Below are positions 318 to 15,872 of a stretch of DNA of 18,946 nucleotides, in pieces. Source of the DNA: a bacterium (GTDB lineage: Bacteria > BMS3Abin14). A program made the position numbers and the translations under genes. The stretch lies in contig CP070698.1 of the NCBI GenBank assembly GCA_020349685.1, forward strand, positions 1,773,962 to 1,792,907, written 5' to 3'. The notes under the pieces were generated by a model. That model was not told where the DNA came from, made no database searches, and saw nothing but the letters and a program-made list of their open reading frames with translations. The first letter of the stretch is position 1. Each line of letters starts with the position of its first letter.

Positions 318-1405
318 ACCGGCTCGACAGATACGTGATCAGACGCTGGCTTCTTTTTTTCATTCCCGCCATGATCGTTCTCGGAGCAGCCTACCTTTCT
401 TCGGACGCCGCTTTCACGCTCTGGGAATATATAAAGAGAGGGTTGTCCCCCGGCCACATCGCCATGCATTATATTCTCAAGACTCCCAACATCCTGTACC
501 AGATGGCGCCCATCGCCTCACTCATCGCCACTTTGCTCACCATGTCGGCCATGAAGCGTTCCGGTGAAATGACGGCAGCCTTTGCCAGCGGGGTGGGAGG
601 AATGAGGATGAGCGCACCGGTCCTCGCTATTGCTGTCGTCGTCAGCATGATGGCTTTTTATGTGACCGAATACATGGCCCCCGGCGCCAACAGGATCAGC
701 CGGGATCTCGTGCGCAATGAATCCGGAGCAGGATCCTCAGTGGTTGGAACGAAGAGAATCTGGCTCCTGGAAGGAAACCGGGTCATACACATACGATCCG
801 TCGAGGACGAAGGGGCCCGGCTCAACCACTTGACGGTCCTGCAGTTCGAGGGGAAAGGCCTGAAAGATCTGGATCTGAGGATGGATGCCGAGAGTGCCGT
901 TTGGACCAGCGGCGCATGGAGAGCCGATAATGTTGTCATGCGGCGCTTCATGAATGGGACCATGACCGATTCGGGAGTTTTAAAAGACCTGCTCCTGCCC
1001 ATTCAAATCAGGCCCGAAGAGTTTTACAAGGTGAGGAGAAAACCGGAGGAGATGAGCATGTCGGAGCTCAGGAGCTATATCCTGAATCTGAAAGCCGCCG
1101 GTCTCCCGTACGTTACCCATCAGGTCAGTATCTACCAGAAGGTCTCAACCGCAGTCATATCGCTCATTTTTACTGTGATGGCTCTCCCCATAGCCTTCAT
1201 CATCCCCATCCGAGGGGGTGTCCCTATGGGACTCGGGCTCAGCATCCTCCTCGTCCTCGTCTTCTGGTCCCTCTTCTCCCTGGCGTTGACCCTTGGCTAT
1301 ACGGGAATTATCCCTCCCCCGGCTGCAGCCTGGTCGGCGCAGCTGCTGGCGCTGATCCTGGGCCTGGCCGCACTGGCGCTGATCAAGCACCCGAGGCTCA
1401 CTTAG
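314..1405 (+). CDS. lptG: LPS export ABC transporter permease LptG (YjgP/YjgQ family), 363 aa
   Basis: N-terminal 'MNRLDRYVIR', 'MKRSGEMTAAFASGVG' (family motif), a central periplasmic beta-rich region, 'PEEMSMSELRSYI' and C-terminal 'IIPPPAAAW'. Confidence 0.88.
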   Translation: MNRLDRYVIRRWLLFFIPAMIVLGAAYLSSDAAFTLWEYIKRGLSPGHIAMHYILKTPNILYQMAPIASLIATLLTMSAMKRSGEMTAAFASGVGGMRMSAPVLAIAVVVSMMAFYVTEYMAPGANRISRDLVRNESGAGSSVVGTKRIWLLEGNRVIHIRSVEDEGARLNHLTVLQFEGKGLKDLDLRMDAESAVWTSGAWRADNVVMRRFMNGTMTDSGVLKDLLLPIQIRPEEFYKVRRKPEEMSMSELRSYILNLKAAGLPYVTHQVSIYQKVSTAVISLIFTVMALPIAFIIPIRGGVPMGLGLSILLVLVFWSLFSLALTLGYTGIIPPPAAAWSAQLLALILGLAALALIKHPRLT

Positions 1406-1443
1406 TGTCGGGTATCGGAGTGTCGGAGTATCGGTGTATCGGG
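1405..1443 (+). repeat. Octamer tandem array GTRTCGGN x5 starting at the lptG stop codon
   Basis: gtgtcgg gtatcgga gtgtcgga gtatcggt gtatcggg (first unit is 7 nt). Confidence 0.9.
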
Positions 1444-1475
1444 GAAAGCGCTAAATCGCAGTTTTATTTTCCATA

Positions 1476-1570
1476 CGGATACCCTGTTACGCCAAAACTC
1501 CGACACATGTGCCTAAAGTTAATGGCCGATCTCCTTGACCGATGCGCCGATACCCCGTTACCCCGATACG
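1476..1570 (-). repeat. Inverted copies of the octamer array (degenerate 1476-1507; cleaner 1539-1570)
   Basis: ccgatgcg ccgatacc ccgttacc ccgatacg at 1539-1570 is the reverse complement of NGTATCGG units. actccgacac at 1497-1506 is the exact reverse complement of 1420-1429. Confidence 0.8.
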
Positions 1571-2022
1571 TCCTTTCCTCCCGGGTACCGGGTACCGGGT
1601 GCCGGGTATTTCCTGAATCCCCCCAGACTCCCCATCAGCCCCACTGACAGGGTCAGATCAATGCTCGACACCGTGAGGAGCGCGGCATAGTTCCCCTCCG
1701 CCCACCGCGACAGCCATGCGCCAAGCGATATCATCGAAATCAAGAAAATAAAGAACCCGACCCTGAAGAACTGCCACGGCTTCGGGTCAGGCAGGGTGTC
1801 GATGCGGGTGAGGTTCCTCCGGCAGCTGGGGAGAAACAGGTATCTTGCCTTGAGACCACCTGCTGTGACAGCGACGAGGAACGGCAGGTAGTTGAGTGAG
1901 GCGCCGGGCCTTATATCCAGGGCCTGGGTGAACAGAGCGTACCCTTTGAGGAACAGGACCACTCCACCTGTGATCCAGGTGAGAAGGGCGAGGAGCTTGA
2001 GGGTGGAGTGGGAGACGGGCAT
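1558..2022 (-). CDS. Hypothetical membrane protein, 154 aa, about 4 hydrophobic segments
   Basis: ATG start, four hydrophobic stretches and a basic loop ('KARYLF...RRNLTRI...PWQFFR'). The last ~16 aa are largely encoded by tandem repeats. Family not recognised. Confidence 0.75.
   Translation of the reverse strand: MPVSHSTLKLLALLTWITGGVVLFLKGYALFTQALDIRPGASLNYLPFLVAVTAGGLKARYLFLPSCRRNLTRIDTLPDPKPWQFFRVGFFIFLISMISLGAWLSRWAEGNYAALLTVSSIDLTLSVGLMGSLGGFRKYPAPGTRYPGGKDVSG
1581..1608. repeat. Heptamer array CCGGGTR x4 inside the 3' end of the hypothetical gene
   Basis: ccgggta ccgggta ccgggtg ccgggta. Confidence 0.9.
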
Positions 2023-2028
2023 GAGGAT

Positions 2029-2056
2029 AATCTCAAATCTCAGATCTCAGATTTGC
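2029..2056. repeat. Heptamer array RATCTCA x3-4 (left arm of an inverted pair)
   Basis: aatctca aatctca gatctca gatttgc. Confidence 0.85.
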
Positions 2057-2123
2057 ACACACCTTCAAAAATCATTTAATGCAAACCGGCACACAGGATT
2101 GTGATCATATCGCTTTTGGAGGC

Positions 2124-2160
2124 ACAAAGAAAGCCGGAGCATATACTCCGGCAACTTTTT
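2124..2160 (-). terminator. Intrinsic terminator downstream of ahcY, possibly bidirectional
   Basis: Stem GCCGGAG (2133-2139) / CTCCGGC (2146-2152) with a 6-nt loop. It is followed by TTTCTTTG on the minus strand and AACTTTTT on the plus strand. Confidence 0.7.
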
Positions 2161-2194
2161 GAGATATGAGATCTGGGATTTGAGATTTGAGGTT
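2160..2194. repeat. Heptamer array TGAGATY x5 (right arm), 3 nt past the ahcY stop
   Basis: tgagata tgagatc tgggatt tgagatt tgaggtt, the reverse complement of the 2029-2056 units. Confidence 0.9.
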
Positions 2195-2197
2195 CGA

Positions 2198-4610
<2,413 letters not shown>

Positions 4611-4711
4611 GTTTGAACTCCCTTCAGAAGAGACTGAATAGTATTAGAAAAGCAACTCATTTAGATAACAGAATAGAGAAAGGTGAGCAAGAGGGAAGGA
4701 CTCATTTCCAA

Positions 4712-4765
4712 TCCTGGTCCTGGTCCTGTTCCAGTTCTGGTTCTAGGTCCAGGTCCAGGTCAAGG
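4712..4765. repeat. Hexamer array x9 drifting from TCCTGG to TCCAGG (self-complementary)
   Basis: tcctgg tcctgg tcctgt tccagt tctggt tctagg tccagg tccagg tcaagg. Confidence 0.9.
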
Positions 4766-4779
4766 TGTGGGCCGGCTGT

Positions 4780-5049
4780 TCATGCCTTTTCCCCGAATCC
4801 GCTCAGCACGAGTTTTTTCAGAACCTTGAGTGCTCTTTCCTCGTCGGGACCCGTGATCTCCATGACTATGGTTTCGCCCCTTGCGGCAGCCAGGGTCAGA
4901 ATTCCCATGATGCTTTTCCCGTTGACCCTTTGCTGACCCTTGTTCAGCCAGATCTCGCAGTCAAATGGGGAAGCGGCCTCTACCAGCTTGCCGGCAGCCC
5001 GGGCATGCAGACCAAGTTTGTTGGGGATAACCAGCTCTACCCTGACCAT
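4780..5049 (-). CDS. ptsH: Phosphocarrier protein HPr, 89 aa
   Basis: 'NKLGLHARAA' (His15) and 'NGKSIMGIL' (Ser46). Start reassigned to the ATG at 5049, which gives HPr length and a short overlap with the EIID end. Confidence 0.95.
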   Translation of the reverse strand: MVRVELVIPNKLGLHARAAGKLVEAASPFDCEIWLNKGQQRVNGKSIMGILTLAAARGETIVMEITGPDEERALKVLKKLVLSGFGEKA

Positions 5050-5759
5050 GGAATACTCATTTCGAGACCGAGAAGACCCAGCAGAACCGCGACGATCACA
5101 AGGATCGCGAATACCGCAGGCATTTTCCACTGCCTGCGGAAGAGACAAAAGGCTAAACCGAACAGGAGCATGGCTGTCCCAGGGGTCTGGGTACCGAAAG
5201 CCACCATTCCCAGGATCAAACCCATAGCCGGTGCGGCGAGATGCTCGAGTATTTTCGATAACTTCTGCCCGTTGAGTCCGGCAGCCCCCTTCAGTGGCTC
5301 ATGGGCGTTCCGATACCCGCGCTCAAGGTAAGCCCACCTGTTCCTCAAATGGACACAATTATAGACAATGAGGAAGAAGACAGGTGCAAGGACAGCGATG
5401 AAAAAAGAAAACGCGAGGCTCACCAGGATAACAACGGGAAGCAGGGTGGCCCAGTAAAATCCATCTCCCATGGCGCCCAGAGGCCCCATAAGGTTGTTCC
5501 GGGCCCTCACACTCTCTTCCCCCTTACCCTCCTCCTCCAGTCTGGCAACAACACCGAGGATATAGGGAGACATGTAAGGGTTGGTATTGAAATATCCCAG
5601 ATGGCGATAACACGCCTCCCTGAAACCGCTTCCTGCAGCCTTTCTCAACCATGGGAGAAGGGAGAAGAAGAATCCAAGCCCCTGCATCCGGGGGAAATTC
5701 CACGATGCCTGGATGGACAGGGAACGGATGAAAAGGTTCAGGCGATCCATAAAGCGCAT
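5037..5759 (-). CDS. PTS mannose/fructose/sorbose family EIID component, ~240 aa
   Basis: 'QASWNFPRMQGLGF', 'HLGYFNTNPY', 'LMGPLGAMGDGFYW'. Start reassigned to ATG 5759, 2 nt after the EIIC stop. Confidence 0.9.
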   Translation of the reverse strand: MRFMDRLNLFIRSLSIQASWNFPRMQGLGFFFSLLPWLRKAAGSGFREACYRHLGYFNTNPYMSPYILGVVARLEEEGKGEESVRARNNLMGPLGAMGDGFYWATLLPVVILVSLAFSFFIAVLAPVFFLIVYNCVHLRNRWAYLERGYRNAHEPLKGAAGLNGQKLSKILEHLAAPAMGLILGMVAFGTQTPGTAMLLFGLAFCLFRRQWKMPAVFAILVIVAVLLGLLGLEMSIPWSG

Positions 5760-5761
5760 AA

Positions 5762-6460
5762 TCAGTAAAGGGCCCTCCAGATACCCAGGCCGGCACCGAG
5801 AACAAGCCCGAGGGTGAACCCTTTCCATCCCCTCCTGGCGGTGCGATCGGAGGCAAGGCCTGCCAGACCGGTGAGGAAGGGGATCATGGCCACAATGGAG
5901 AAACGGGCAAGGAGGGGTCCTGAGCCCTTTATAAGGTAGTTAAAGGAGATAACCAGAACGGTTCCTGCCAGCAGAAAGGACCCACCGTGATACAGGCCAG
6001 CCCTCAGAGCCGACATGAGATGCTGGAGCTGCACGAGGTCGGTGCGTCCCAGCCTGAGGTAGACCATGGCCCTGTGAAAAGCCTTTTCGTTGCTGCGCCT
6101 CCAGTGGATATTCACTGCCCTGTCGAGAAACACTGTCGGTACACCGAACAGGACGGCAAGACCGATCAGTTCCATGGTCGGTCGGGGGCCTGGATACATT
6201 CCGATGAGCAGGACGCTGATAAGCGAGGGGAAAAGGGGATGATGCGGAATAAAGGAGCCGACGGGAAGGGAGCTGAGGAAAAACAGTTCATAGATGAGCC
6301 CCAAAATGACTCCTTCGGCAGGAACGCCCAGGACAAGGCCCAGAATAAAAGACGCGACCATGGGCCTGGAGATCTGGAATTGGCCGAAGGCGTTGCGGTC
6401 AAGGCTCAGGATCCCTGCCACGAGGGCGGAAAGGAGGATCTTTGTGACAGCAACCGTCAT
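5762..6460 (-). CDS. PTS mannose family EIIC component (divergent), 232 aa
   Basis: 'LDRNAFGQFQISRPMV...GLVLG...GLIYELFFL...PVGSFIP' matches the EIIC-Man N-terminal pattern. Lies between EIIB and EIID. Confidence 0.85.
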   Translation of the reverse strand: MTVAVTKILLSALVAGILSLDRNAFGQFQISRPMVASFILGLVLGVPAEGVILGLIYELFFLSSLPVGSFIPHHPLFPSLISVLLIGMYPGPRPTMELIGLAVLFGVPTVFLDRAVNIHWRRSNEKAFHRAMVYLRLGRTDLVQLQHLMSALRAGLYHGGSFLLAGTVLVISFNYLIKGSGPLLARFSIVAMIPFLTGLAGLASDRTARRGWKGFTLGLVLGAGLGIWRALY

Positions 6461-6945
6461 TGAGAATCGCCGGGCTCTTTGAGACAGCTGACAAGATCCA
6501 GAGCGGCGGCATCCGGAACCTCTCTTGCCTCGACAGCGATCCCCCTTTGAGCCAGGATCCTGACCATTTCAAGATCCCTGCTGTTCAGGTATACGGAAGG
6601 AGTGATCTCTGTGCCACCCTTAATGTTGTGGAGGTTCCCGACGTTGATGCTGCTCAGAACCACACCCCCTTCCAGAACCTCAAGGACGTCGTCGAGTCCC
6701 GCGAACAGAAGGAGCATCCTGGACTCACCTGAACTGCTGATAAGGGTTTTCAGCCCCCGTAGTGGGGTAACCTTCAGTTCAATGTGATCGGGCACAATGA
6801 GCCGCATCAAGCGGCACCTGTCTTCTTCCAGACAAACGGTGTCGCTCACCACGACGATCGTATCGGCCTGCACGTAAGGGGTCCACCCCTCCACGACCTG
6901 ACCGTGCAGCAGCCGGTCATCGACCCTGGCCAGTACGACAGGCAT
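6457..6945 (-). CDS. PTS mannose/sorbose family EIIB component, 162 aa
   Basis: 'RVDDRLLHGQV' phospho-His motif and 'INVGNL'. Confidence 0.93.
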   Translation of the reverse strand: MPVVLARVDDRLLHGQVVEGWTPYVQADTIVVVSDTVCLEEDRCRLMRLIVPDHIELKVTPLRGLKTLISSSGESRMLLLFAGLDDVLEVLEGGVVLSSINVGNLHNIKGGTEITPSVYLNSRDLEMVRILAQRGIAVEAREVPDAAALDLVSCLKEPGDSQ

Positions 6946-6948
6946 CCT

Positions 6949-7359
6949 TCAACCCCGCGCCAGATACTCCGTGGCCACCTTGATATGACTCCGGCCGTAG
7001 TCCCTGAGGGTGGACGCTGCTTCATGCAGGGTGGTGTCCCTTTCCAGGCTGCGGAGCTTCGTCAGCATCGGCAGGTTAACACCCGTAACGACCTCTATAT
7101 CGTCCTTGCCGAGAAAGGAAAGGCTTATATTTGATGGGGTTCCACCGAACATGTCGACGAGGAGGATGACTCCCTTGTCCCCCCTGACTTCTTTAATGGC
7201 TTTTACGATGCGTTCCCTGGTCATAGCGACATCATCCCCGGCCTGCACCGATATCGAACGTATCGGCCCGCTTTCGCCGGTTATCATGCTGCAGGTCTCA
7301 AGCAGCGCCTGCCCGAGGCTCCCGTGGGTGATGATCACGATCCCTATCTGGTCTTTCAT
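6949..7359 (-). CDS. PTS mannose family EIIA component, 136 aa
   Basis: 'IGIVIITHG', 'VDMFGGTPSN', 'VTGVNLPML'. Start reassigned to ATG 7359 with GGAGGT SD inside the rapZ 3' end. Confidence 0.93.
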   Translation of the reverse strand: MKDQIGIVIITHGSLGQALLETCSMITGESGPIRSISVQAGDDVAMTRERIVKAIKEVRGDKGVILLVDMFGGTPSNISLSFLGKDDIEVVTGVNLPMLTKLRSLERDTTLHEAASTLRDYGRSHIKVATEYLARG

Positions 7360-7363
7360 GTTC

Positions 7364-8233
7364 TCACACCTCCGGTAGGTCGCGGTGCCGCACCTGGACC
7401 CATAAGTGGTCCCGATCCCTGAAATATTGCGACATCCTCTCGACAATTGCAACGGACCTGTGTCGTCCACCTGTGCACCCGATGGCCACTGTGAGGTAAC
7501 CTCTCCCTTCGCGCAGGTATCTCGGCAGCAGGAACTCCAGAAAGGATTCGAGCTGGCCCAGGAACTCTCCGGCCCCATCGGCATTGTAGACAAAGGAACT
7601 GACTTCGGGGGTCCTGCCGTCAAGGTCCCTGAGTTCCTCCACGAAGAAAGGGTTGGTCAGAAACCTCACATCGAGGACCATGTCCGCTTCCTTTGGAAGA
7701 CCGTTCTTAAAACCGAAGGAGAGGAAGGTCAGGAGCATCCTTTCTCTTGTACCGGATGTCCGGAAACGGTCGGCCACAAATTTCCTCAGATCGTGATAAC
7801 CCAGATCGGATGTGTCCAGATGGATGTCTGCCGACTCCTTGAGCGGCTCTAAAAGCTGTCTCTCCCTGGAGAGCGCCTCAAGGAGCGGGAGGGAGTGGTC
7901 CAGGGGGTGAACGCGTCTCGTTTCACTGAACCTTTTCTGCAGAGCTTCCAGAGAAGCCTCCAGAAAGATCACCTTGATACTGTAACCGGATTCCTTCAGT
8001 GACCTGATGACCTCGGGATAGCTCGATACCGACTCCCCTCCCCTGATATCCATCACCATAGCGGCCCGGCTGATGGTCGAACCGCTTGTGGAGGCAAGAT
8101 GGACAAAAGAGGGCAGAAGGTCAATCGGAAGGTTATCGACGGTATAATAACCCATGTCCTCCAGGGTTCGGAGCACAGTCGTCTTACCGGAACCGGAGTA
8201 GCCGGATATGATAAGTAATTGGGAACTGGTCAT
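7364..8233 (-). CDS. rapZ: RNase adapter RapZ / YvcJ-family P-loop NTPase, 289 aa
   Basis: 'ISGYSGSGKT', 'VDNLP', 'RFSETRRVHPL', 'SFGFKNGLP', 'DVRFL', 'IGCTGGRHRSV'. Confidence 0.96.
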   Translation of the reverse strand: MTSSQLLIISGYSGSGKTTVLRTLEDMGYYTVDNLPIDLLPSFVHLASTSGSTISRAAMVMDIRGGESVSSYPEVIRSLKESGYSIKVIFLEASLEALQKRFSETRRVHPLDHSLPLLEALSRERQLLEPLKESADIHLDTSDLGYHDLRKFVADRFRTSGTRERMLLTFLSFGFKNGLPKEADMVLDVRFLTNPFFVEELRDLDGRTPEVSSFVYNADGAGEFLGQLESFLEFLLPRYLREGRGYLTVAIGCTGGRHRSVAIVERMSQYFRDRDHLWVQVRHRDLPEV

Positions 8234-9201
8234 TCCATGGATTCCAGGTCTGGTTTACCCGTATCCTGGGTTTGGCTGGCCAACCTCTCGTTCAGTGTTT
8301 TATCGAATTCCTTTGCGGCATTGAAACCCATACGCCGCAGGAGATGGTTCCTGGCGGCGACCTCGATGATCATAGTCAGGTCGCGCGCCGGCCTCACGGG
8401 GATGTTCAGATAAGGGATCTCCAACCCCAGCATGGAGTAGGTGTTATCTTCAAGGCCAAGGCGCTCCACTTTTAAGTCATTGTGCCACTCGACGAGCTCA
8501 ACGACGAGTTCGATCTTCTTGCTCTTCCGGATGGAGGAGACACCGAAAAGATCCCTGATATTCAGGATCCCGAGCCCCCGGATCTCCATGTGGTATTTGA
8601 TCAGATTCTCCGCGCTTCCGAAAATGGCGTCCTGCATCTTTCTTCTCAGGACGACGACATCGTCCCCTACAAGCCGGTGCCCGCGAGCGACGAGACCAAG
8701 GGCGCATTCGCTCTTCCCTATCCCGCTCTTGCCGATAAGGAGTATGCCCACGCCGAAGACATCCACCAGACAACCGTGCACGGAGGTTTCCGGGGCAAGG
8801 ACATCCTCCAGGTAGACCGTCACCCGACGGATCAATGATGAGGTTATTTCAGGGCTTCTGAGAAGGGGGACCTGATGAAGTTCGCAAAGGTTGACAAGCG
8901 ACTCAGGTGCAATGAGGTTTTTGGCGATGATAAGGCAGGATACACCCGCAGAGCAAAGCTGGTCCATCCGTTCGTCACCCAGGTCCTGGTCCAGGGTTTC
9001 AAGGTAGGACAATTCAGTGGCACCCAGGATCTGGACCCTGTCTCTGTGAAGCTGGTCCAGGAAGCCGGCCAGAGCCAGTCCGGGCTTTTGAATGCGCGCG
9101 ATGCGGATGGCCCTGTCCATGCCCTTCTCACCGGCGAGGATCTCCAGATCAAGATCCTTGTACAGGTGGTCATAAAGGTAGCGGACAGGAATGCTGATCA
9201 T
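8230..9201 (-). CDS. hprK: HPr(Ser) kinase/phosphorylase, full length, 323 aa
   Basis: 'QKPGLALAG', 'GKSGIGKSECAL', 'GHRLVGDD', 'HMEIRGLGILNI', 'IPVRPARDL..IIEVAARN'. Confidence 0.97.
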   Translation of the reverse strand: MISIPVRYLYDHLYKDLDLEILAGEKGMDRAIRIARIQKPGLALAGFLDQLHRDRVQILGATELSYLETLDQDLGDERMDQLCSAGVSCLIIAKNLIAPESLVNLCELHQVPLLRSPEITSSLIRRVTVYLEDVLAPETSVHGCLVDVFGVGILLIGKSGIGKSECALGLVARGHRLVGDDVVVLRRKMQDAIFGSAENLIKYHMEIRGLGILNIRDLFGVSSIRKSKKIELVVELVEWHNDLKVERLGLEDNTYSMLGLEIPYLNIPVRPARDLTMIIEVAARNHLLRRMGFNAAKEFDKTLNERLASQTQDTGKPDLESME

Positions 9202-9217
9202 CCGTCCCCGCGGTCAT

Positions 9218-9679
9218 TCAGTGCCGCTGGTCCTCCTCTTCTATGGTGTGGTAGAGTTTGTCCCGGTCATCGGTACCGAGAAGTGTCTTGCGACACTCCG
9301 GGTTTTTGACGATGCGGGAGATCCTTGCGAGGGTCTTCAGGTGAAGCCCGGCTGAGTCCTCCGGCGCAACAAGAAGGAAGAAAAGGTTGACAGGCTCACC
9401 GTCATGGGCATCGAAATCCACCCCGTCGGGTGAGCGGCCAAAGACCAGCAGGATCTCGTTGAGCCCGCTCAGCCTGCCATGGGGTATGGCGACGCCGTGG
9501 CCGATACCTGTGCTGCCGAGCATCTCCCGATCCAGCAGAATACTGACCAGCTTCTCCGGATCATCGATCTTGCCGGACTGATTGAGGTGATCGACCATCT
9601 CCTTGATCACGCCCTCTCGTGAGGAAGCGTTCAGCCGAGAGATAACATCATTTTCCGAAAGATAATCCACGATCTTCAT
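9218..9679 (-). CDS. ptsN: PTS EIIA (Ntr/fructose-type), 153 aa
   Basis: 'REMLGSTGIGHGVAIPHGR' and 'FDAHDGEPVNLFFLLVAP'. Position after rpoN-hpf. Start reassigned to ATG 9679. Confidence 0.9.
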   Translation of the reverse strand: MKIVDYLSENDVISRLNASSREGVIKEMVDHLNQSGKIDDPEKLVSILLDREMLGSTGIGHGVAIPHGRLSGLNEILLVFGRSPDGVDFDAHDGEPVNLFFLLVAPEDSAGLHLKTLARISRIVKNPECRKTLLGTDDRDKLYHTIEEEDQRH

Positions 9680-9692
9680 GACCTCTAACACA

Positions 9693-10238
9693 CTACTCCT
9701 GAATCTGTGGCTCAATCAACCCAAAATGACCATCGTCCCGAACGTAGATGACGTTGAGCTGGTTGGTCTGTGAATTGTTGAAAAGAAGGAAGTTCTTGTT
9801 CAAAAGCTCCATCTGCATAATGGCTTCATCGACGGTGATGGGCTTGAGAATGATCTCCTTTTGTTTTTTTATCTCGGGCCCGGACAACTGCGAAGCCATC
9901 TCGGGTAAAACGGTGTGGCTGGCCCGGAACTCGCGCACCGCCTCCCTGGTACCATGACGCACGATCTTTTCCTTGTATTTCTTGACCTGGCGATCCAGCT
10001 TGTCGACGACCAGGTCGATGGAGGAATACATGTCGTTGGTCTCTTCCTTGCCCTTGATGATGATCCCGTTGGCGTGGACGGTGATCTTGGCGATATGCCT
10101 GTATTTTTCCACCTGAAGGATGGCCTGAGCGTTCACCGGCTCGCTGAGGGGTTTGAGGACCTTTTCAAGCTTTTCGGCGGCGTAATCCCTAAGGGCATCA
10201 CTTTGTTCCATCTGCTTGAATGAAACCTCTATTTGCAT
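9693..10238 (-). CDS. hpf: Ribosome hibernation promoting factor (long HPF), 181 aa
   Basis: 'SDALRDYAAEKLEK', 'DMYSSIDLVVDKLDRQVKKYKEK' and C-terminal 'KPITVDEAIMQMELL...NVIYVRDDGHFGLIEP'. ATG 10238 with GGGAGG SD. Confidence 0.95.
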   Translation of the reverse strand: MQIEVSFKQMEQSDALRDYAAEKLEKVLKPLSEPVNAQAILQVEKYRHIAKITVHANGIIIKGKEETNDMYSSIDLVVDKLDRQVKKYKEKIVRHGTREAVREFRASHTVLPEMASQLSGPEIKKQKEIILKPITVDEAIMQMELLNKNFLLFNNSQTNQLNVIYVRDDGHFGLIEPQIQE

Positions 10239-10501
10239 GGTAATGGAACCTCCCTTCAAAGGTTATGGACCTAAACATAATAAACAAACCAAGTCAACCC
10301 CGCGAGAGCTGGTTAACACAGCACCTCACAGGGTTCATTTATCTGGAGATGATCGGCCTGAGGGGATCTCATCTTGTCCTTTTTTGACTTTACCATTGTT
10401 TTGGCTGCTTCGCTCCCATTACTATCTTACCACGACCGTGAAAAGCGGTGTGACTAGAGCCCGGTCGACAGAAAAACTTTCGGCCAGAGCCTTATGGAAC
10501 C

Positions 10502-11950
10502 TCAGCTGATCTTCTTTCTCCTGGACGAAGGAAGGATCTTCATGGACTCCCTGTACTTGGCAACGGTTCTCCTGGCAATATCAACCCCCTCGAGCCTGAG
10601 CATCTGTGAGATGGCCTGGTCGCTGAGGGGTTTTGCCGTGTCTTCCGCCCCGATAAGATCCCTGATCTTGGCCCTCACGCTCTCGGAAGCCATCATCTCT
10701 CCCGAAAGCGTCTGGATACCAGGGTTGAAGAAGAACTTGAGCTCGAACAGGCCATGGGGGCAGTGAAGGTATTTATGGGTCGTTACCCGGCTGACGGTGG
10801 ATTCATGGACGCCGATGTCATCGGCCACATCCCTCAGTACCATCGGTTTCAGATGCCTGATTCCGCGCTCGAAAAAGTCCAGCTGCTTTTCAAGGATACT
10901 TTTGGTGACACGGTAGATCGTGCGCTGCCGCTGGTCGATGCTCTTTATGAGCCAGGATGCCGAGCGTATCTTTTCCAGCAGGAACTCGCGATCCTCCGCC
11001 TTCATGGAGGATCCGTGCTTCAACAGCTCCCGGTAGTAACCGTTGATCCTCAGTTTGGGCATCCCGTCGTCGTTGAGCATGATGGTCCACTCATCACCCA
11101 TCTTGAACAGAAAAGCGTCGGGTGTGACATAGATCGACTCCGTGCCGCCGAAGGGCCTGCCCGGCTTGGGTTCAAGCTCCTTGAGGAGGTCCAGGGCCTT
11201 CAAAACTTCCGATCTCGATACTTCCATCTGCCGGACGATGGTGTCGACATCGCCCCTGGCCACGTCATGAAGATGTTCACGGATGATCTTCTCTACCAGT
11301 GAACCCTCAAGCTCCAGGAACCTTATCTGGATGAGCAGGCACTCGACCAGGTCCCTGGCCCCTGCTCCCGGCGGATCGAACTCCTGGATAACCCTTAGCA
11401 CATTTGGACCGACGGCTTCGATATCAGGCCCCAGAGGATGCAGGATCTCCTCGAGAGGAGTCTCCAGATAGCCGTTGTCATCCAGGTTCCCGATAATAGC
11501 CTGTCCTGCTGTCATTTCCTCTTCAGTGAGCCGGGTCATCCGCAGCTGCCACATGAGATGTTCCTGGAGAGTGTCAGGCCTGGTGATCATCGCCTCGAAG
11601 GACGGCCGCTCCTGTTCTTCGCGAGCCTGGTAAGGGAGGCTCTGGCTGGATTCCAGGTAGGATTCCCACTCTGCGATATCCTTCGGGATGGAAAGCGTGT
11701 TGATCTCGTCTTCCCTGTCACTGTTGCTTTGGGCAGGTGCGTTGGGATCCTCGGGCTGGTCAATGGAGAACTCGGTCTCGTTCTCCGGCGGTGCGTACTC
11801 ATCCAGAACGGGATTTTCCAGCAACTCCTGCTGGACGATCTCCGAAAGCTCCAACCTCGACAGTTGTAGCAGGCGGATCGCCTGCTGAAGCTGCGGTGTC
11901 ATCACCAGCTGCTGCTGCTGTTTTAACTGTAGCTGTGTTTTAAGGTCCAA
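10502..11950 (-). CDS. rpoN: RNA polymerase sigma-54 factor, 482 aa (TTG start)
   Basis: Gln-rich region I 'QQLVMTPQLQQAIRLLQL', HTH 'VHESTVSR', RpoN box 'ARRTVAKYRE'. GAGGT lies 8 nt upstream of the TTG. Confidence 0.98.
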   Translation of the reverse strand: MDLKTQLQLKQQQQLVMTPQLQQAIRLLQLSRLELSEIVQQELLENPVLDEYAPPENETEFSIDQPEDPNAPAQSNSDREDEINTLSIPKDIAEWESYLESSQSLPYQAREEQERPSFEAMITRPDTLQEHLMWQLRMTRLTEEEMTAGQAIIGNLDDNGYLETPLEEILHPLGPDIEAVGPNVLRVIQEFDPPGAGARDLVECLLIQIRFLELEGSLVEKIIREHLHDVARGDVDTIVRQMEVSRSEVLKALDLLKELEPKPGRPFGGTESIYVTPDAFLFKMGDEWTIMLNDDGMPKLRINGYYRELLKHGSSMKAEDREFLLEKIRSASWLIKSIDQRQRTIYRVTKSILEKQLDFFERGIRHLKPMVLRDVADDIGVHESTVSRVTTHKYLHCPHGLFELKFFFNPGIQTLSGEMMASESVRAKIRDLIGAEDTAKPLSDQAISQMLRLEGVDIARRTVAKYRESMKILPSSRRKKIS

Positions 11951-11959
11951 AATGCTTTA

Positions 11960-12148
11960 CCTCAAATCTCCACCAGGTTGAATTTCAAATTTCAACTGAT
12001 CCAAGATCTAAAATCCACCGTCCGAAGTTAACCATGTCCAAATCTCATACTGATTTTCCCATTACTATTTCCGTTACTATTACCCGTTCTCCCCGTGCCC
12101 CCACGTCTGGCGGCTTTTATCAGACACCAGACCCTAGACACTAGACAC
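11960..12148. repeat. Mosaic of short repeats in the lptB-rpoN gap, including YAGACAC x4 (12121-12148)
   Basis: cagacac cagaccc tagacac tagacac; aatttca aatttca (11981-11994); caaatctc fragments; tcccattactat ttccgttactat (12057-12080). Confidence 0.75.
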
Positions 12149-12152
12149 TTCC

Positions 12153-12878
12153 TTATAAGCTAAACCCCTCCCCAAGGTAGATCTTCCTCGCCCGCTCGCT
12201 GCGAATGATAGTTTCCGGAGGACCTTCCTCGAGGATCTCCCCCGCGGCCAGGATATAGGCTCTGTCGGTGATACCCAGTGTCTCCCTGACATTGTGGTCG
12301 GTTATCAGGATCCCGAGACCGCTCTCCTTCAAACCCCTGATGAGCTTCTGGAGTTCCACGACCGTTATGGGATCGATCCCGGCGAAGGGTTCGTCCAGGA
12401 GCAGGTATGTCGGCTCGGGAACGAGGGCCCTGGCGATCTCGGCTCTTCTTCGTTCGCCCCCTGAAAGGGATCCGCCGAGGGTTTCCCCGAGATGGGTTAT
12501 ACCCATGGACTCTTTCAGCTCCAGAAGCCTTCCGGCCCTGTCGGCCTTGCTGACACCAACCGCCTCCATAATAGCGAGGATGTTGTCGTCGACCGACATC
12601 CCCCTGAAAATAGATGACTCCTGGGGGAGATAACCGATCCCGGCCCGGGCCCTGCGGTGTATGGGCCACCCGGTGATGTCAACGCCATCCAGCTGGACTT
12701 TGCCTCCACTGGGACGGATTAGACCCGAGATCATGTAGAACGTTGTCGTCTTGCCCGCCCCGTTGGGACCGAGAAGTCCCACGACCTCACCGGGAGAAAG
12801 GCTGACGCAGACATCCTTGACCACTGTTCTGCCACGGTACGATTTCTTCAGATATTCAGCGCTCAGCGCGGTTTTCAT
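12153..12878 (-). CDS. lptB: LPS export ABC transporter ATP-binding protein, 241 aa
   Basis: 'GLLGPNGAGKTTTFYM', 'YLPQESSIF', 'LSGGERRRAEIARAL', 'LLDEPFAGIDP', 'ITDHNVRETL', 'YLGEGFSL'. Confidence 0.97.
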   Translation of the reverse strand: MKTALSAEYLKKSYRGRTVVKDVCVSLSPGEVVGLLGPNGAGKTTTFYMISGLIRPSGGKVQLDGVDITGWPIHRRARAGIGYLPQESSIFRGMSVDDNILAIMEAVGVSKADRAGRLLELKESMGITHLGETLGGSLSGGERRRAEIARALVPEPTYLLLDEPFAGIDPITVVELQKLIRGLKESGLGILITDHNVRETLGITDRAYILAAGEILEEGPPETIIRSERARKIYLGEGFSL

Positions 12879-13339
12879 CAGGGTCGATCCCCCTCCACCC
12901 CGAAGAGAGCCTTCACAGGACCCATAAAGGAAGCCGTACCCTCATCGAGGGAGTATACGATCCTTTCCGCTTCAATGGTGGTTTTCTCCCTCATCAGGCG
13001 GGGAGCCCCGGTGAGCTCAACCATTCCGGACTTCAGGTCGAACTCGGCCATGCCGGCTTCGAGGCGGTCGTTTCCCCTGGTCAGGACAATATTGCCAGAG
13101 GCCTCACCTCTCAATATCCTGGAAGGGTCGGCCTCATCGGTATGAACCTTGAGAGTGTCACAACCCATGACCACCTCCGCCATGCGCACCTGAACCTTGC
13201 CCTCGAATTGGATATCTCCGGTCTTTTCCTCTATCACGAGGCTCTCAGACCGTATGGTCACACCCTGCTCGGAGGCGCACCAGGCGGACGAGGCCAGGTA
13301 AAAAACAGAGAACGCAGCCGCAAACAGTCGAATTCTCAA
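12878..13339 (-). CDS. lptA: LptA/OstA-family periplasmic LPS transport protein, 153 aa
   Basis: Signal peptide, then OstA-like 'ITIRSESL...FEGKVQV...ASGNIVL...VELTGAPRL' pattern (here VTIRSESL). TTG start overlaps the lptC stop, and its stop overlaps the lptB ATG. Confidence 0.85.
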   Translation of the reverse strand: MRIRLFAAAFSVFYLASSAWCASEQGVTIRSESLVIEEKTGDIQFEGKVQVRMAEVVMGCDTLKVHTDEADPSRILRGEASGNIVLTRGNDRLEAGMAEFDLKSGMVELTGAPRLMREKTTIEAERIVYSLDEGTASFMGPVKALFGVEGDRP

Positions 13340-13872
13340 GGCCGGTTGCTCCTGCTGTCAAGGGTTGTCCTCACGCCACCGCTGACCATCGCCATCCCGG
13401 AGTCTATCCTGTACCTGGCCGATTTCCCGAGAACCTCAAGTCCCAGGCGCTTTAAACGTACGCCCCCACCCGCAACCATGACAGCATCCGCGCCATTCCA
13501 TTGCAGCTCTGGCGTTTCCAGCCTGGAACCAAGCCCACTGGCGACGATGACATTCCCTTCGAGGTGAAGGACCAACCTGGACGCTTCAAAACGTCCCTTG
13601 TCACTGATCACCGTCACTCGCTCAAAACCGTTGGAAAGCATCCTGGCTGACACCTCCTGCAGAAGAACATCGCCCTGTGCGTCATAGGTGGCTTTAACGG
13701 CCCTGATCTCCCACCGGCCGTTAACTGTTTCCTGGGTGATCCTGAACCCGGTCATCTCCACATCCGAAACGGCACCGGTCGTCTGTGGAAAAAACAGGAG
13801 AAGACAGAGACCAACTGTTTTCAGATGACCTCCAAGAAGGGTTTCCCTCCGGCTCTTGAACCGGGATAGCAT
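13336..13872 (-). CDS. lptC: LPS export protein LptC (start uncertain)
   Basis: 'WEIRAVKA', 'LHLEGNVIV', 'LETPELQW' beta-jellyroll pattern. Position kdsC-X-lptA-lptB. Confidence 0.8.
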   Translation of the reverse strand: MLSRFKSRRETLLGGHLKTVGLCLLLFFPQTTGAVSDVEMTGFRITQETVNGRWEIRAVKATYDAQGDVLLQEVSARMLSNGFERVTVISDKGRFEASRLVLHLEGNVIVASGLGSRLETPELQWNGADAVMVAGGGVRLKRLGLEVLGKSARYRIDSGMAMVSGGVRTTLDSRSNRP

Positions 13873-13912
13873 AAAACTAGACTAACACAGTGCAGAGTGA
13901 AAGGAAAGATTA

Positions 13913-13928
13913 TGGCGTGATTGTTGCA
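13913..13928 (+). promoter_or_regulatory. Candidate sigma-54 -24/-12 element, antisense to the operon
   Basis: TGGCGTGATTGTTGCA fits TGGC-N7-TTGCA, with exact GG-N10-GC spacing. Confidence 0.55.
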
Positions 13929-14007
13929 TGCGCTGCCTCTGGTGGGCATGAAAGGATACCAGGAACGTATCCGGAAGAGTAAATAGCTGTTGCAGGTCGG
14001 GTAGAGC

Positions 14008-14084
14008 GAGATTGGAGATTAGAGGTTGGAGATTAGAGATTAGAGATTAGAGATTGGAAATTAGAAATTAGAAATTAGAAATCA
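14008..14084. repeat. Heptamer array x11, GAGATTR changing to GAAATTA
   Basis: gagattg gagatta gaggttg gagatta gagatta gagatta gagattg gaaatta gaaatta gaaatta gaaatca. Confidence 0.97.
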
Positions 14085-14103
14085 GACCAAACAGTTGTGC
14101 TCT

Positions 14104-14136
14104 TTATCATTTTCCATTTTCTATTATCCATTTTCC
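14104..14136. repeat. Heptamer array TTTCCAT-like x4-5, inverted relative to 14008-14084
   Basis: ttatcat tttccat tttctat tatccat tttcc. Confidence 0.85.
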
Positions 14137-14154
14137 GGTTTAGCGTACTTCCAA

Positions 14155-14688
14155 TTATATGTACCGCTCCATGAGCTCATCAAGGAGTCCCTGCTCCCGA
14201 AGGATAAGAAATATCAGCTCCCTGGCTGCCCCTTTGCCTCCGTGTGCATCCGTCGCGAAATGTGACAGGTCCAGGACCTCGGGTGCGGCATCGCAAGGGC
14301 AGCAGCCAAGACCCACCGAAAGCATGACCGGAAGGTCCACCACGTCATCCCCCATGTAGGCTATTTCGGCAGCGGAGAGCCCGGTCTGATCCATTATCTC
14401 ACGAAGTGATTCGCGCTTGTCCTTGATCCCCTGGAAGACCAGCCCGATGCCCAGTTCGTCACATCTTCTATTGACAATATCGCTCTCGCGCCCGGTTATG
14501 ACAGCGACGGTCAGACCAGCCCTTACGGCCAGCTTGATGGCGTGACCATCCCGGACATGGAACGATTTTATCTCTCCTCCCGATGATGTATAGGTGATCT
14601 GGCCGTCGGTGAGCACGCCGTCCACGTCAAAGGCGATGAGCCTGATCTTCTTGGCCGCCGCGATAACGGCAGGAGAAACCTTTTTCAC
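14155..14688 (-). CDS. kdsC: KDO-8-phosphate phosphatase (HAD family), 177 aa, GTG start
   Basis: 'FDVDGVLTDG', 'FHVRDG', 'ITGR', 'YMGDDVVDLP', 'GGKGAARE'. Confidence 0.95.
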   Translation of the reverse strand: MKKVSPAVIAAAKKIRLIAFDVDGVLTDGQITYTSSGGEIKSFHVRDGHAIKLAVRAGLTVAVITGRESDIVNRRCDELGIGLVFQGIKDKRESLREIMDQTGLSAAEIAYMGDDVVDLPVMLSVGLGCCPCDAAPEVLDLSHFATDAHGGKGAARELIFLILREQGLLDELMERYI

Positions 14689-14695
14689 TGGAGTA

Positions 14696-14730
14696 TTTTC
14701 CTTTCCACTTTCCCCTTTTCCCTTTCCCCT
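14696..14730. repeat. Polypyrimidine heptamer array CTTTCCC x4-5 filling the kdsD-kdsC gap
   Basis: ttttc ctttcca ctttccc cttttcc ctttccc ct. Confidence 0.85.
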
Positions 14731-15709: not shown

Positions 15710-15865
15710 AATATCCTCGCAAAAAATTTCTTCGAGCCATTTTGGGAGGCGGGGGATGGTTTCCTTCGCCCGCCAGCCGGAGTGAATCCGCCTGGTTCCA
15801 CCCCCACCCCAGGATATGCGCTGTGGATACATCCCGAGTGATGGACTTTTAGCGAGTCCCTCATA
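15710..15865. mobile_element. Putative MITE/REP-like structured element, ~150 bp
   Basis: Imperfect terminal inverted repeats CTCGCAAAAAATT (15716-15728) and GACTTTTAGCGAG (15844-15856), 10/13 match. GC-rich internal hairpins. No coding capacity recognised. Confidence 0.45.
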
Positions 15866-15872
15866 TTCCGGC

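Follow-up and report, generated by a model that had tools for sequence, protein, structure and literature searches.

Short tandem-repeat arrays after stop codons in a kds-lpt-rpoN-hpf-pts locus of a BMS3Abin14 bacterium

Short tandem repeats recur close to stop codons in the 18,946-nt stretch of contig CP070698.1 analysed here (hereafter the window), with a different unit at almost every site, which raises the question of whether they were deposited by mobile DNA, serve as RNA or DNA elements, or arose in place. The order of the genes, kds-lpt-rpoN-hpf-pts, is one that we take to resemble that of Geobacter-type genomes. A preliminary description of the sequence had attributed the arrays to a dedicated process, with empty sites of a mobile gene cassette as one possibility, and this interpretation was partly supported. 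The window was compared with three syntenic loci from relatives (L001–L003).

Arrays in the window and their excess over chance

Gene calls, which matched the gene names in the preliminary description, defined eight gaps longer than 40 bp. As described, 6–8 bp tandem arrays were detected in six of the eight using Tandem Repeats Finder (TRF), and none was detected in the gaps at 10260–10501 and 15741–15872. A strict filter (period 6–8, at least 3 copies, score of at least 38) applied to 1401 bp of gap sequence recovered six arrays, against a mean of 0.001 and a maximum of 1 in 1000 dinucleotide-preserving shuffles. The 8-mer and 6-mer arrays were missed by this filter because merging gave them periods of 16 and 23. 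Merging left 17 TRF rows for the window. Eleven are non-coding or at gene edges, and the six coding rows were all weak (score 39 or lower). Identity at lags of 7, 14 and 21 was 0.355, 0.340 and 0.305 in intergenic DNA and 0.247, 0.240 and 0.283 in coding DNA. Arrays of 6–8 bases following stop codons are real and lie far above chance. Those found at ptsH, lptB, kdsC and kdsD, together with the remainder of one gap, are:

4707–4765, minus strand: hexamer array, about 8 copies, 14 nt after the ptsH stop (TRF)
11951–12118, minus strand: remainder of the lptB-rpoN gap, with a residual period-7 signal (lag 7, z = +3.1)
12121–12149, minus strand: heptamer array, 4 copies, 4 nt after the lptB stop (12153–12155; TRF)
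14008–14086, minus strand: longest array, about 11 heptamers (10.3 by TRF), in the kdsC 3' flank
14106–14136, minus strand: heptamer array, 4.1 copies, 18 nt after the kdsC stop (14155–14157; TRF)
14697–14730, minus strand: purine-rich heptamer array, 4.4 copies, occupying the 47-nt kdsD-kdsC spacer (TRF)

The units and stop distances given earlier in mRNA sense were reproduced from the sequence, namely lptG (0 nt), ahcY (3 nt, AAUCUCA in the register used there), ptsH (14 nt, CCUGGA), lptB (4 nt, GUGUCUA), kdsC (18 nt, GGAAAAU) and kdsD (5 nt, AGGGGAA). Copies within an array are imperfect, as had been noted, matching at 76–93% (TRF). For seven arrays the TRF bounds depart slightly from those listed here (1404–1443, 2030–2052, 2158–2191, 4707–4761 with 8.3 copies, 12122–12149, 14108–14136 and 14700–14730). 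Most units are indeed unrelated. Among the 18 heptamer consensus units, seven of the 153 pairs differed by no more than one mismatch, where 3.7 were expected, and the fraction of shuffles reaching at least seven such pairs was 0.07; three of the seven join partner arms or segments of a single array, leaving four that are non-trivial. Array lengths are mostly about 28–40 nt, with two longer examples of 59 and 79 nt. By our own reading of the window sequences, both G-rich and C-rich arrays are present in mRNA sense. Arrays 14008–14086 and 2156–2195 in the window, 177–204 in L001 and 7027–7065 in L002 are almost free of G, and arrays preceding start codons are purine-rich. None of the arrays matched an Rfam family, and no transposon hallmark, cassette gene or common binding motif was found.

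The hexamer array is quasi-palindromic because its unit switches from one CCWGG-core form to another; its predicted RNA fold is weak (z = -1.4), and it is missing in all three relatives. At lptB, the last units of the array are predicted to pair with the sequence directly downstream (z = -2.4). We read the remainder of the lptB-rpoN gap as decayed arrays. This gap is 202 nt in the window versus 38 nt in L001 and 50 nt in L003, where the spacer is entirely array, and the additional 150 nt is as expected of arrays that first lengthen a gap and later decay. The longest array consists of two blocks of identical copies. The kdsD-kdsC array begins 5 nt after the kdsD stop, ends 6–8 nt before the kdsC start and is predicted to be unstructured as RNA (z = 0.08).

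orf154 and the inverted array pairs

Both inverted pairs in the window flank a single gene, orf154, the only one bracketed by arrays. The features of this region are:

1404–1444, plus strand: octamer array, about 5 copies, starting at and overlapping the lptG stop (1403–1405); left arm of inverted pair 1 (TRF)
1478–1506, minus strand: decayed inverted copy of the lptG array, 76% complementary to 1412–1440
1539–1569, minus strand: octamer array, 3.9 copies; right arm of inverted pair 1 (TRF, inverted-repeat search)
1558–2022, minus strand: orf154, a conserved membrane protein without a family model (gene call, family search)
1581–1608, minus strand: heptamer array, 4.0 copies, inside the orf154 3' end (TRF)
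2027–2052, minus strand: heptamer array, 3.3 copies; arm of inverted pair 2 (TRF)
2133–2152, no strand assigned: intrinsic-terminator-like hairpin, bidirectional, predicted on both strands
2156–2195, minus strand: heptamer array, 4.9 copies; other arm of inverted pair 2 (TRF)

Pair 1 joins 1412–1442 with 1539–1569 (81% complementary) and pair 2 joins 2029–2052 with 2164–2194 (88–92% complementary). The preliminary description had counted four sites that are or have inverted partners; these two pairs stood, the hexamer is quasi-palindromic only, and an inverted-repeat search gave no inverted partner in the other three gaps examined. Across the window and L001–L003 there are three inverted pairs. 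A suggested role in 3'-UTR RNA structure is fair for the two pairs in the window because they are inverted and fold into long stems (predicted z = -4.0 for pair 1, over 1400–1612, and -5.5 for pair 2). The unpaired purine-rich arrays have no predicted fold (z = 0.08 and 1.12).

The orf154 stop codon (1558–1560) lies inside the 1539–1569 array, and the 1581–1608 array codes for the tail residues YPAPGTRYPGG. Among 62 homologues the tail is hypervariable, with 0–36 residues after the conserved core (no more than 5 in 25 of the 62, at least 10 in 33). As tails vary and that in the window is array-encoded, the arrays lie at, and sometimes over, the functional end of a gene. At the other end of orf154, the 2027–2052 array finishes 4 nt upstream of the start codon and is complementary to the ahcY 3' array. 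The latter starts 3–6 nt after the ahcY stop (2198–2200), and the terminator-like hairpin lies directly past it, between the arms of pair 2, giving the order stop, 3–6 nt, array, 5 nt, terminator. Here and at kdsD-kdsC, arrays abut constrained elements on both sides.

The gene orf154 is missing from this junction in L001 and L002; the L003 locus ends 360 nt past ahcY and so does not cover it. In L001, the orf154 junction carries a 105-aa TPR-like ORF with arrays on both sides.

Recurrence in related loci and density in controls

The window and its three relatives (HprK identity 57–70%) total 58.2 kb, and all of the results rest on these loci, from four genomes; 66 Firmicutes loci (1004 kb) served as controls. 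Arrays were found in all three relatives, often at matching gene junctions, with largely unrelated units. Period 7 accounted for 11 of the 13 short-period arrays in the 58.2 kb. The shared period had been taken as a sign of dedicated machinery, a view that did not survive the comparison, as period 7 also dominates the control loci (9 of 12 arrays). The density of short-period arrays was 22.3 per 100 kb versus 1.19 in the controls, an approximately 19-fold difference for which a lineage-specific cause is needed.

The reported placement near stop codons was borne out. In 13 of the 15 array-bearing gaps of the window and relatives the first array lies no more than 19 nt from the stop (Fisher combined p = 4e-6 to 9e-4, depending on the length of gap reserved for the downstream gene and reaching 9e-4 with 60 nt reserved). 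In the controls, two of nine period-7 arrays touch a stop codon, by crude ORF calling. From one genome to another, array-bearing gaps tend to be found at the same junctions (12 of 19 gap instances; p = 0.016 by permutation). Arrays at orthologous junctions had a mean local score of 6.6 (28 pairs) versus 5.5 for the 133 other pairs (p = 0.054), and the top cross-genome similarities were between non-orthologous sites (top-5 test, p = 0.195). Two array-free stretches are conserved among the genomes: about 60 nt proximal to the lptC start and a promoter-like TTGACT region before hpf. An inverted-repeat element adjoins arrays in gaps of L001 and L003, and the GTCATTGCGA element does not occur in the window. 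In L003, an inserted FGE-domain gene is not bordered by arrays.

Known repeat classes and possible origins

The REP and BIME sequences of enterobacteria lie after stop codons within or at the end of operons, where their inverted hairpins are thought to stabilise the upstream mRNA. REPs are single imperfect palindromes forming one genome-wide family that is spread by a dedicated transposase. The window arrays share the position after stops in or at the end of operons, but their arms are tandem arrays with site-specific units. The grammar of about four units, within 50 bp of a stop and with inverted pairs, is already on record for Xanthomonas/Nostoc and Geobacter (PMC4692102, PMC2700814). The G-rich heptamers GGGAATC of Xanthomonas and GGGGAYT of Nostoc (Rehm et al. 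2015, PMC4692102) are likewise described as tandem, mostly of about four units and between co-oriented genes, with 70–75 inverted heptamer pairs per Xanthomonas genome. There, one G-rich, G-quadruplex-capable unit dominates the genome, whereas in the window nearly every site has its own; by our count only one window array, 14697–14730, has as many as three runs of at least three G. Geobacter metallireducens has four-heptanucleotide elements and paired 'global regulator binding sites' (classes 1–3), for the latter of which IHF/HU has been proposed (Aklujkar et al. 2009, PMC2700814). They resemble the window arrays in having 3–5 intergenic tandem repeats of 7–9 nt, often in opposite-strand pairs at variable distance, and differ in being multicopy families (16–49 copies) with a fixed consensus; none of four of the published consensus sequences was found in the window. 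The direct repeats of 6–42 nt in G. bemidjiensis are a related case (PMC2996986). The TAACTGA direct repeats of marine Beggiatoaceae (MacGregor 2015, PMC4679880) are also intergenic heptamer arrays near coding-sequence boundaries (2–6 copies, described as having no known function, with RNA-binding proteins suggested as readers), but use a single unit genome-wide and lie mostly just upstream of starts, in contrast to the many units, mostly after stops, seen here.

A further class is that of long simple sequence repeats (units of 5–11 nt), for which polymerase slippage has been proposed and of which heptanucleotides are the commonest in most prokaryotic genomes (Mrazek et al. 2007, as cited in PMC4679880 and PMC4692102). 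The window arrays share with it a length greater than chance allows, the prevalence of heptanucleotides, the exclusion from coding DNA of units whose length is not divisible by three, and a scattered distribution over lineages, as these two papers describe. They present the 2007 work as a statistical survey and do not credit it with stop placement, inverted pairing or recurrence at orthologous junctions. The dominance of period 7 in both window and controls fits this published prevalence.

An origin in mobile DNA, with the arrays as footprints, ends or attachment sites (of miniature inverted-repeat elements with array termini, or as insertion sites of small cassettes, orf154 being a filled site as first proposed), appears improbable. 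It could account for the inverted pairs around a gene missing at that junction in L001 and L002, for the bracketed TPR-like ORF and for the inverted-repeat element beside arrays in L001 and L003, and insertion sequences are reported at a fixed distance from some G. metallireducens paired sites (PMC2700814). However, the units of pairs 1 and 2 differ and their inter-arm sequences are unlike by eye, no target-site duplication was seen by eye at the pair ends, the bracketed gene has no family match, the majority of arrays have no partner and only core genes beside them, and the gene that was inserted in L003 lacks them. The GTCATTGCGA element is absent from the window, and the 1400–2200 region had no plasmid match. 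The longest gap, 282 bp, is too short for a gene of about 120 aa, so no gap could hold the four-helix-bundle or GxxExxY genes named in the preliminary description, and no link between arrays and such genes was found in the published literature searched. Nothing in the analysis marks the arrays as empty sites left by a mobile gene cassette. That the arrays are bound as DNA by nucleoid-associated or ribbon-helix-helix-type proteins, which would recognise tandem 7–8 bp repeats in direct or inverted order, is very improbable. Cooperative binding of repressors to such repeats is a known mode, and the architecture is that of the G. metallireducens paired sites (PMC2700814), but with the unit changing at nearly every site a large set of different proteins would be required, the arrays follow genes and do not occupy promoters, and the consensus sequences tried gave no match. 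The site-specific units and this lack of a G. metallireducens consensus make a single sequence-specific factor or mobile element unlikely.

Selection of the arrays as cis-acting RNA elements, in 3' UTRs or intercistronic spacers, is also unlikely, though less so. They could offer regularly spaced contacts to a protein that binds single-stranded RNA by composition or register and not by exact sequence (Rho where arrays are G-poor and C/U-rich, the ribosome or its protein S1 where they are purine-rich, or cold-shock or CsrA-type proteins), or pair with complementary arrays of other transcripts, as the complementarity between the array upstream of orf154 and the ahcY array might suggest. The stop-proximal bias, the recurrence by junction, the marginally greater likeness at orthologous junctions, the nearly G-free arrays and the purine-rich ones before starts are consistent with this, as are the binders proposed for the TAACTGA repeats (PMC4679880). 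Against it, the arrays have no shared composition, G-rich and C-rich examples both occurring, their best cross-genome similarities are non-orthologous, and no Rfam family was matched.

Local slippage or duplication in unconstrained DNA following genes is the explanation that we favour, although we consider it evenly poised between right and wrong. The arrays would be long simple sequence repeats of the heptanucleotide class, arising in place when a short local seed slips during replication or is duplicated in tandem; the blocks of identical neighbouring copies at 14008–14086 are a mark of local duplication. They would survive in the only unconstrained DNA of a compact locus, which runs from a stop codon to whatever constrained element follows (terminator hairpin, promoter or 5' leader, or start codon of the next gene). 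Copies are only 76–93% alike, which implies that slippage is slow at present and that the arrays have some age. Six of seven gap remainders lack decayed periodicity, so a smooth continuum of birth and decay is not seen. Slippage alone cannot produce an inverted partner, yet three pairs occur in four loci, and the stop bias (p = 9e-4) and junction clustering could reflect selection or a targeted process.

The arrays of this locus belong to a class of intergenic repeats in bacteria that is already known but poorly understood. Under local slippage or duplication they would be transcribed together with the upstream gene, the unpaired ones acting as structure-free spacers, of which the purine-rich ones immediately before the next start codon could also serve in ribosome binding. 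Inverted arms, perhaps generated by inverted duplication or hairpin-templated copying, would form a long stem, probably a REP/BIME-type 3' hairpin or a structure at the transcript end. The lineage as a whole would make or retain such arrays at an unusually high rate.

Arrays in the gaps of a core-gene block

The window consists of a conserved core-gene block and one extra gene between lptG and ahcY, the 154-codon membrane-protein gene orf154 (1558-2022, minus strand). The plus strand carries lptF and lptG, while ahcY, metK, ptsH, the mannose-type PTS, rapZ, hprK, ptsN, hpf, rpoN and lptB follow orf154 on the minus strand, continuing with lptA, lptC, kdsC, kdsD, kdsA, pyrG and kdsB. Tandem Repeats Finder (TRF) confirmed the preliminary description in placing arrays with units of 6-8 bp in six of the eight intergenic gaps longer than 40 bp, and the units and stop-to-array distances listed there were all recovered when the gaps were written in mRNA sense. 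TRF also called a further array within the 3' end of orf154. Seven of the ten window arrays had copy numbers of 3.9-5 (3.3, 8.3 and 10.3 in the remaining three), and the unit-to-unit match within arrays was 76-93%. As the copies are only this alike, the arrays are not freshly made. In the 11-copy array, blocks of adjoining copies are identical, which shows local duplication.

When the 1401 bp of window gaps were filtered strictly (period 6-8, three or more copies, score of at least 38), 6 arrays were retained, against a mean of 0.001 and a maximum of 1 in 1000 dinucleotide-preserving shuffles. This count is too low, because merging had assigned the octamer and hexamer arrays to periods 16 and 23. 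Among the merged TRF rows for the window, 11 of 17 were non-coding or at gene edges and the 6 coding rows were all weak. Every period-7 or period-8 array with at least three copies was at a gene edge or in non-coding DNA, and the array at 1581-1608 extends into the variable tail of orf154. Base identity at lags of 7, 14 and 21 was 0.355, 0.340 and 0.305 in the gaps and 0.247, 0.240 and 0.283 in coding DNA.

Two true inverted pairs of arrays were found in the window, both flanking orf154:

1412-1442 with 1539-1569: pair 1, arms 81% complementary and 96 nt apart
1478-1506: third copy of the pair 1 array, decayed
2029-2052 with 2164-2194: pair 2, arms 88-92% complementary and about 111-118 nt apart

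Pair 1 is located where lptG and orf154 converge, between the ends of the two genes, and a consensus scan found no terminator there. Pair 2 encloses the ahcY terminator, a bidirectional hairpin 5 nt beyond the end of the ahcY array, and stops 4 nt short of the orf154 start. As RNA, the two regions were predicted to fold at -83.5 kcal/mol (pair 1, z = -4.0) and -57.7 kcal/mol (pair 2, z = -5.5), with 0 of 200 shuffles as good in each case. The ptsH hexamer array is only quasi-palindromic (fold z = -1.4), and the three remaining window gaps examined gave no inverted partner. Unpaired purine-rich arrays were predicted to give unstructured RNA (z = 0.08 and 1.12).

Array density and placement in related loci

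A genome scan seeded with HprK yielded 69 loci, and the only close ones were three syntenic relatives, L001, L002 and L003 (HprK identity 70%, 63% and 57%, respectively), all from metagenome-assembled genomes. The remaining 66, mostly from Firmicutes together with one from Ignavibacteria, were the controls. The relatives have their gene order in common with the window and also carry period-7 arrays, with different units. Together, the window and relatives contained 13 arrays of period 6-8 in 58.2 kb (22.3 per 100 kb) and the controls 12 in 1004 kb (1.19 per 100 kb), an approximately 19-fold difference in density; the lineage sample behind this and all other comparisons is 58 kb from four genomes. 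Period 7 was dominant in both sets (11 of 13 and 9 of 12 arrays), and the lineage is therefore peculiar in density, not in period.

Of the 9 period-7 arrays in the Firmicutes controls, 2 were stop-proximal, a figure based on crude ORF calls and too small for generalising. Heptamer arrays were seen in several Agathobaculum-like Firmicutes loci (L012 244-276 and 2820-2852, L014 18931-18958, L006, L018 and L021). Two of these arrays run across a stop codon, and the units ATTTTCC and TAATTCC are similar to that of the kdsC array in the window.

Arrays were placed in the orientation of the gene upstream in 25 gaps of the four loci, with the ptsH array of the window and the first ahcY array of L002 added by hand, as merging had given a longer period. 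In 13 of the 15 array-bearing gaps the first array began no more than 19 nt from the stop codon (Fisher's combined p = 4e-6 against uniform placement). With 35 or 60 nt allotted to the downstream gene, p was 2.5e-4 and 9e-4, respectively. These values are somewhat generous, as taking the first array in gaps with several favours short distances. At their far ends, too, arrays run right up to the next element, and the 47-nt kdsD-kdsC spacer is nearly all array. No array is present in two sequences that are alike between genomes, the roughly 60 nt preceding lptC and a stretch upstream of hpf that contains TTGACT. The rpoN-hpf gap (window 10260-10501; L001 3657-3840; L003 2544-2614) is also without arrays, and the stretch GGGTTGACTT..., by its look the hpf promoter, is kept in all three genomes. 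The gap upstream of metK (window 4611-4779) exceeds that of the three relatives by about 80 nt, for the most part through its hexamer array, and neither a SAM riboswitch nor any other Rfam family was detected in it.

The same junctions tended to carry arrays in different genomes. Arrays were found 3' of ahcY in 4/4 genomes, lptB in 3/3, kdsC in 2/2, lptG in 2/3, ptsH in 1/4 and rpoN in 0/3, and this clustering (arrays in 12 of 19 gap instances) gave p = 0.016 by label permutation. L003 has one inverted pair, 3' of ahcY, consisting of one unit on opposite strands. The lptB-rpoN gap (window 11951-12152) is 202 nt long, compared with spacers of 38 nt in L001 and 50 nt in L003 that are nearly all array, and the start of rpoN is confirmed by a conserved N-terminus. 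With the called arrays masked, the remainder of this gap retained a lag-7 signal (z = +3.1), and the extra DNA looks like old arrays. No such signal was detected in the other six gap remainders, and the pooled lag-7 z was 0.5. Decayed arrays as a general gap filler were rejected, the signal being present in only one of seven remainders.

The units themselves differed from site to site. Among 153 pairs of 18 heptamer consensus units, 7 were near-matches (at most one mismatch) compared with 3.7 expected (fraction 0.07), and three of the seven were between partner arms or within a single array. The kdsC 3' array is one base from the unit of the pairing between the ahcY 3' array and the orf154 leader. 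Arrays at orthologous junctions had a mean local score of 6.6 (28 pairs) versus 5.5 for other cross-genome pairs (133 pairs; p = 0.054). For the top five p was 0.195, and the best-scoring pairs were non-orthologous. Because this likeness is marginal, we make no claim of homology for arrays at one junction. Two candidate properties shared by all units, a stop triplet acting as a universal stop-codon trap and a uniform C-over-G skew for Rho loading, were dropped, as by eye each fitted only some units.

The variable ahcY/lptG junction

The membrane protein encoded by orf154 is small and conserved: a search for homologues retrieved 74 at E <=0.001; there was no named family among them and no match to orf154 in NCBIfam or Pfam. 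When 22 of the 74 were aligned with the window protein, conservation of the core extended up to GSLGGF[KR], beyond which the tails diverge in length and sequence. The tail boundary, set by motif search, could be located in 62 of the 74 homologues; tail length ranged from 0 to 36 residues, with 25 tails of at most 5 residues and 33 of at least 10. The array at 1581-1608 encodes the tail of the window protein, and the stop codon lies inside the array at 1539-1569. Several tails in the family have a 7-residue rhythm which, judged from the protein alone, would come from a 7-nt DNA period read in three frames. An 80-codon open frame (1405-1647, plus strand) spans three arrays and is most likely spurious.

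The content of this junction varies. The place occupied by orf154 (window 1406-2197) holds a 105-aa TPR-like ORF in L001 (12013-12677) and a rhodanese and a multihaem cytochrome in L002 (6960-9612). Elsewhere, L003 has a gene with an FGE-sulfatase (SUMF1-like) domain between ptsN and hprK (3657-5109), with no clear flanking arrays; the ptsN-hprK distance in the window and L001 is 13-16 nt.

It had been suggested that the arrays mark empty sites for genes encoding small four-helix-bundle or GxxExxY proteins. This found no support in the window, where the longest gap is 282 bp and the only array-bracketed gene, orf154, matched neither the IVS/Avd-like four-helix-bundle nor the GxxExxY family. 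Nor was there support in print, as a full-text search retrieved no literature on array-flanked genes of either kind and the available text of one relevant paper mentions GxxExxY merely as a neighbour of a reverse transcriptase.

Of the 69 loci, only L001 and L003 contained the inverted-repeat element GTCATTGCGA, which was absent from the window at up to two mismatches. Elements with the GTCATTGCGA core adjoin arrays in L001 (213-288 and about 12460-12640) and L003 (12180-12189). By eye, the L001 element is flanked by two look-alike arrays in direct order, as if inserted into one.

Known repeat classes and possible origins

The grammar of these arrays is already in print, as far as the available portions of the relevant papers show. 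The window arrays consist of head-to-tail units within the 5-11 nt range of long simple sequence repeats (LSSRs), are longer than expected by chance and have their non-triplet units in non-coding DNA or at gene edges. Heptanucleotide arrays are given as the commonest class of long simple sequence repeats in prokaryotes in the accessible parts of PMC4679880 and PMC4692102. The former (MacGregor 2015), which describes TAACTGA arrays, refers to Mrazek et al. 2007 for heptanucleotide repeats as the most abundant class in most genomes and for polymerase slippage as the proposed origin. In copy number, stop proximity and inverted pairs, the window arrays agree with the G-rich heptamer repeats of Xanthomonas and Nostoc as described in the consulted passages of Rehm et al. 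2015 (PMC4692102). They differ in that those repeats form G-quadruplexes (at least four runs of at least three G), whereas the array at 14697-14730 has three such runs and the other arrays none. G-quadruplex formation was rejected, a single array being rich in G runs. The accessible sections of PMC2996986 report intergenic direct repeats of 6-42 nt in G. bemidjiensis, and nothing on heptamers or Geobacter was found in those of 'Satellites in the prokaryote world' (PMC6749651). A description combining many units in one locus with recurrence at orthologous junctions with other units was not found in the literature searched, so far as its text was available.

A CRISPR array, in which repeats of 23-50 nt alternate with unique spacers of about their own length, was ruled out, as the copies in the window are contiguous and 6-8 nt long. 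An Rfam search of the whole window gave three matches (E = 0.48-0.62), all far below gathering scores.

The most economical account is that the arrays are simple sequence repeats of the heptanucleotide class that would arise in place and inhabit the unconstrained 3' flank of genes, where arrays with a partner would act as 3' hairpins and unpaired arrays as spacers free of structure. We consider the chances of this account about even. By itself it leaves the inverted partners, the strength of the stop bias and the 19-fold lineage excess unexplained, and for this reason three other readings were kept. That the arrays are functional RNA elements is rather unlikely. Mobile DNA is improbable. The inverted arms are present, as the terminal inverted repeats of a miniature inverted-repeat transposable element would be; no direct duplication was visible by eye outside them, no second copy of the module was found inside the 18.9-kb window and blastn gave no plasmid match to window 1400-2200. 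A role as DNA-binding sites is very doubtful. The retrieved text of Aklujkar et al. 2009 (PMC2700814) describes Geobacter metallireducens families of 3-5 tandem repeats of 7-9 nt, mostly paired on opposite strands with variable spacing and present at 16-49 sites per genome, and proposes IHF/HU-type binding sites. Of the consensus sequences published for its class 1-3 paired sites and four-heptanucleotide elements (GTTGCTYN, TCTCCGTS, MTYCTGA and GGACCGG), three had 0 matches in the window, and the fourth had 1 match with 3 mismatches, within hpf, compared with 3.9 expected by chance. The use of the same junctions with differing units in four genomes speaks against a single sequence-specific reader and against a single mobile element. 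What it suggests is a role for position, length or composition, or else a mutational hot spot.

A more speculative proposal, to which we give little credence, is that the lineage has a dedicated, position-aware process or code. In one version, a repair or synthesis activity would deposit a 7-nt copy over and over, for about 30 nt, at the ends of transcripts or genes. In the other, the arrays would amount to an RNA pairing code, in which an array in the 3' UTR of one gene binds its complement across another gene's ribosome-binding region, as the ahcY 3' array might with the orf154 leader. If true, either version would account for the reuse of the same junctions with different units, for the inverted partners and for a density 19 times that of the controls.

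Whatever their origin, recurrence at the same junctions with differing units is one constraint on any model of such arrays. The window offers a compact test bed, with core genes, ten arrays, two pairs that form predicted hairpins and one protein family with a C-terminal tail written by an array. For annotation, the arrays can move stop codons and make protein tails variable, and they can give rise to false small ORFs, the 80-codon frame at 1405-1647 being a likely case.
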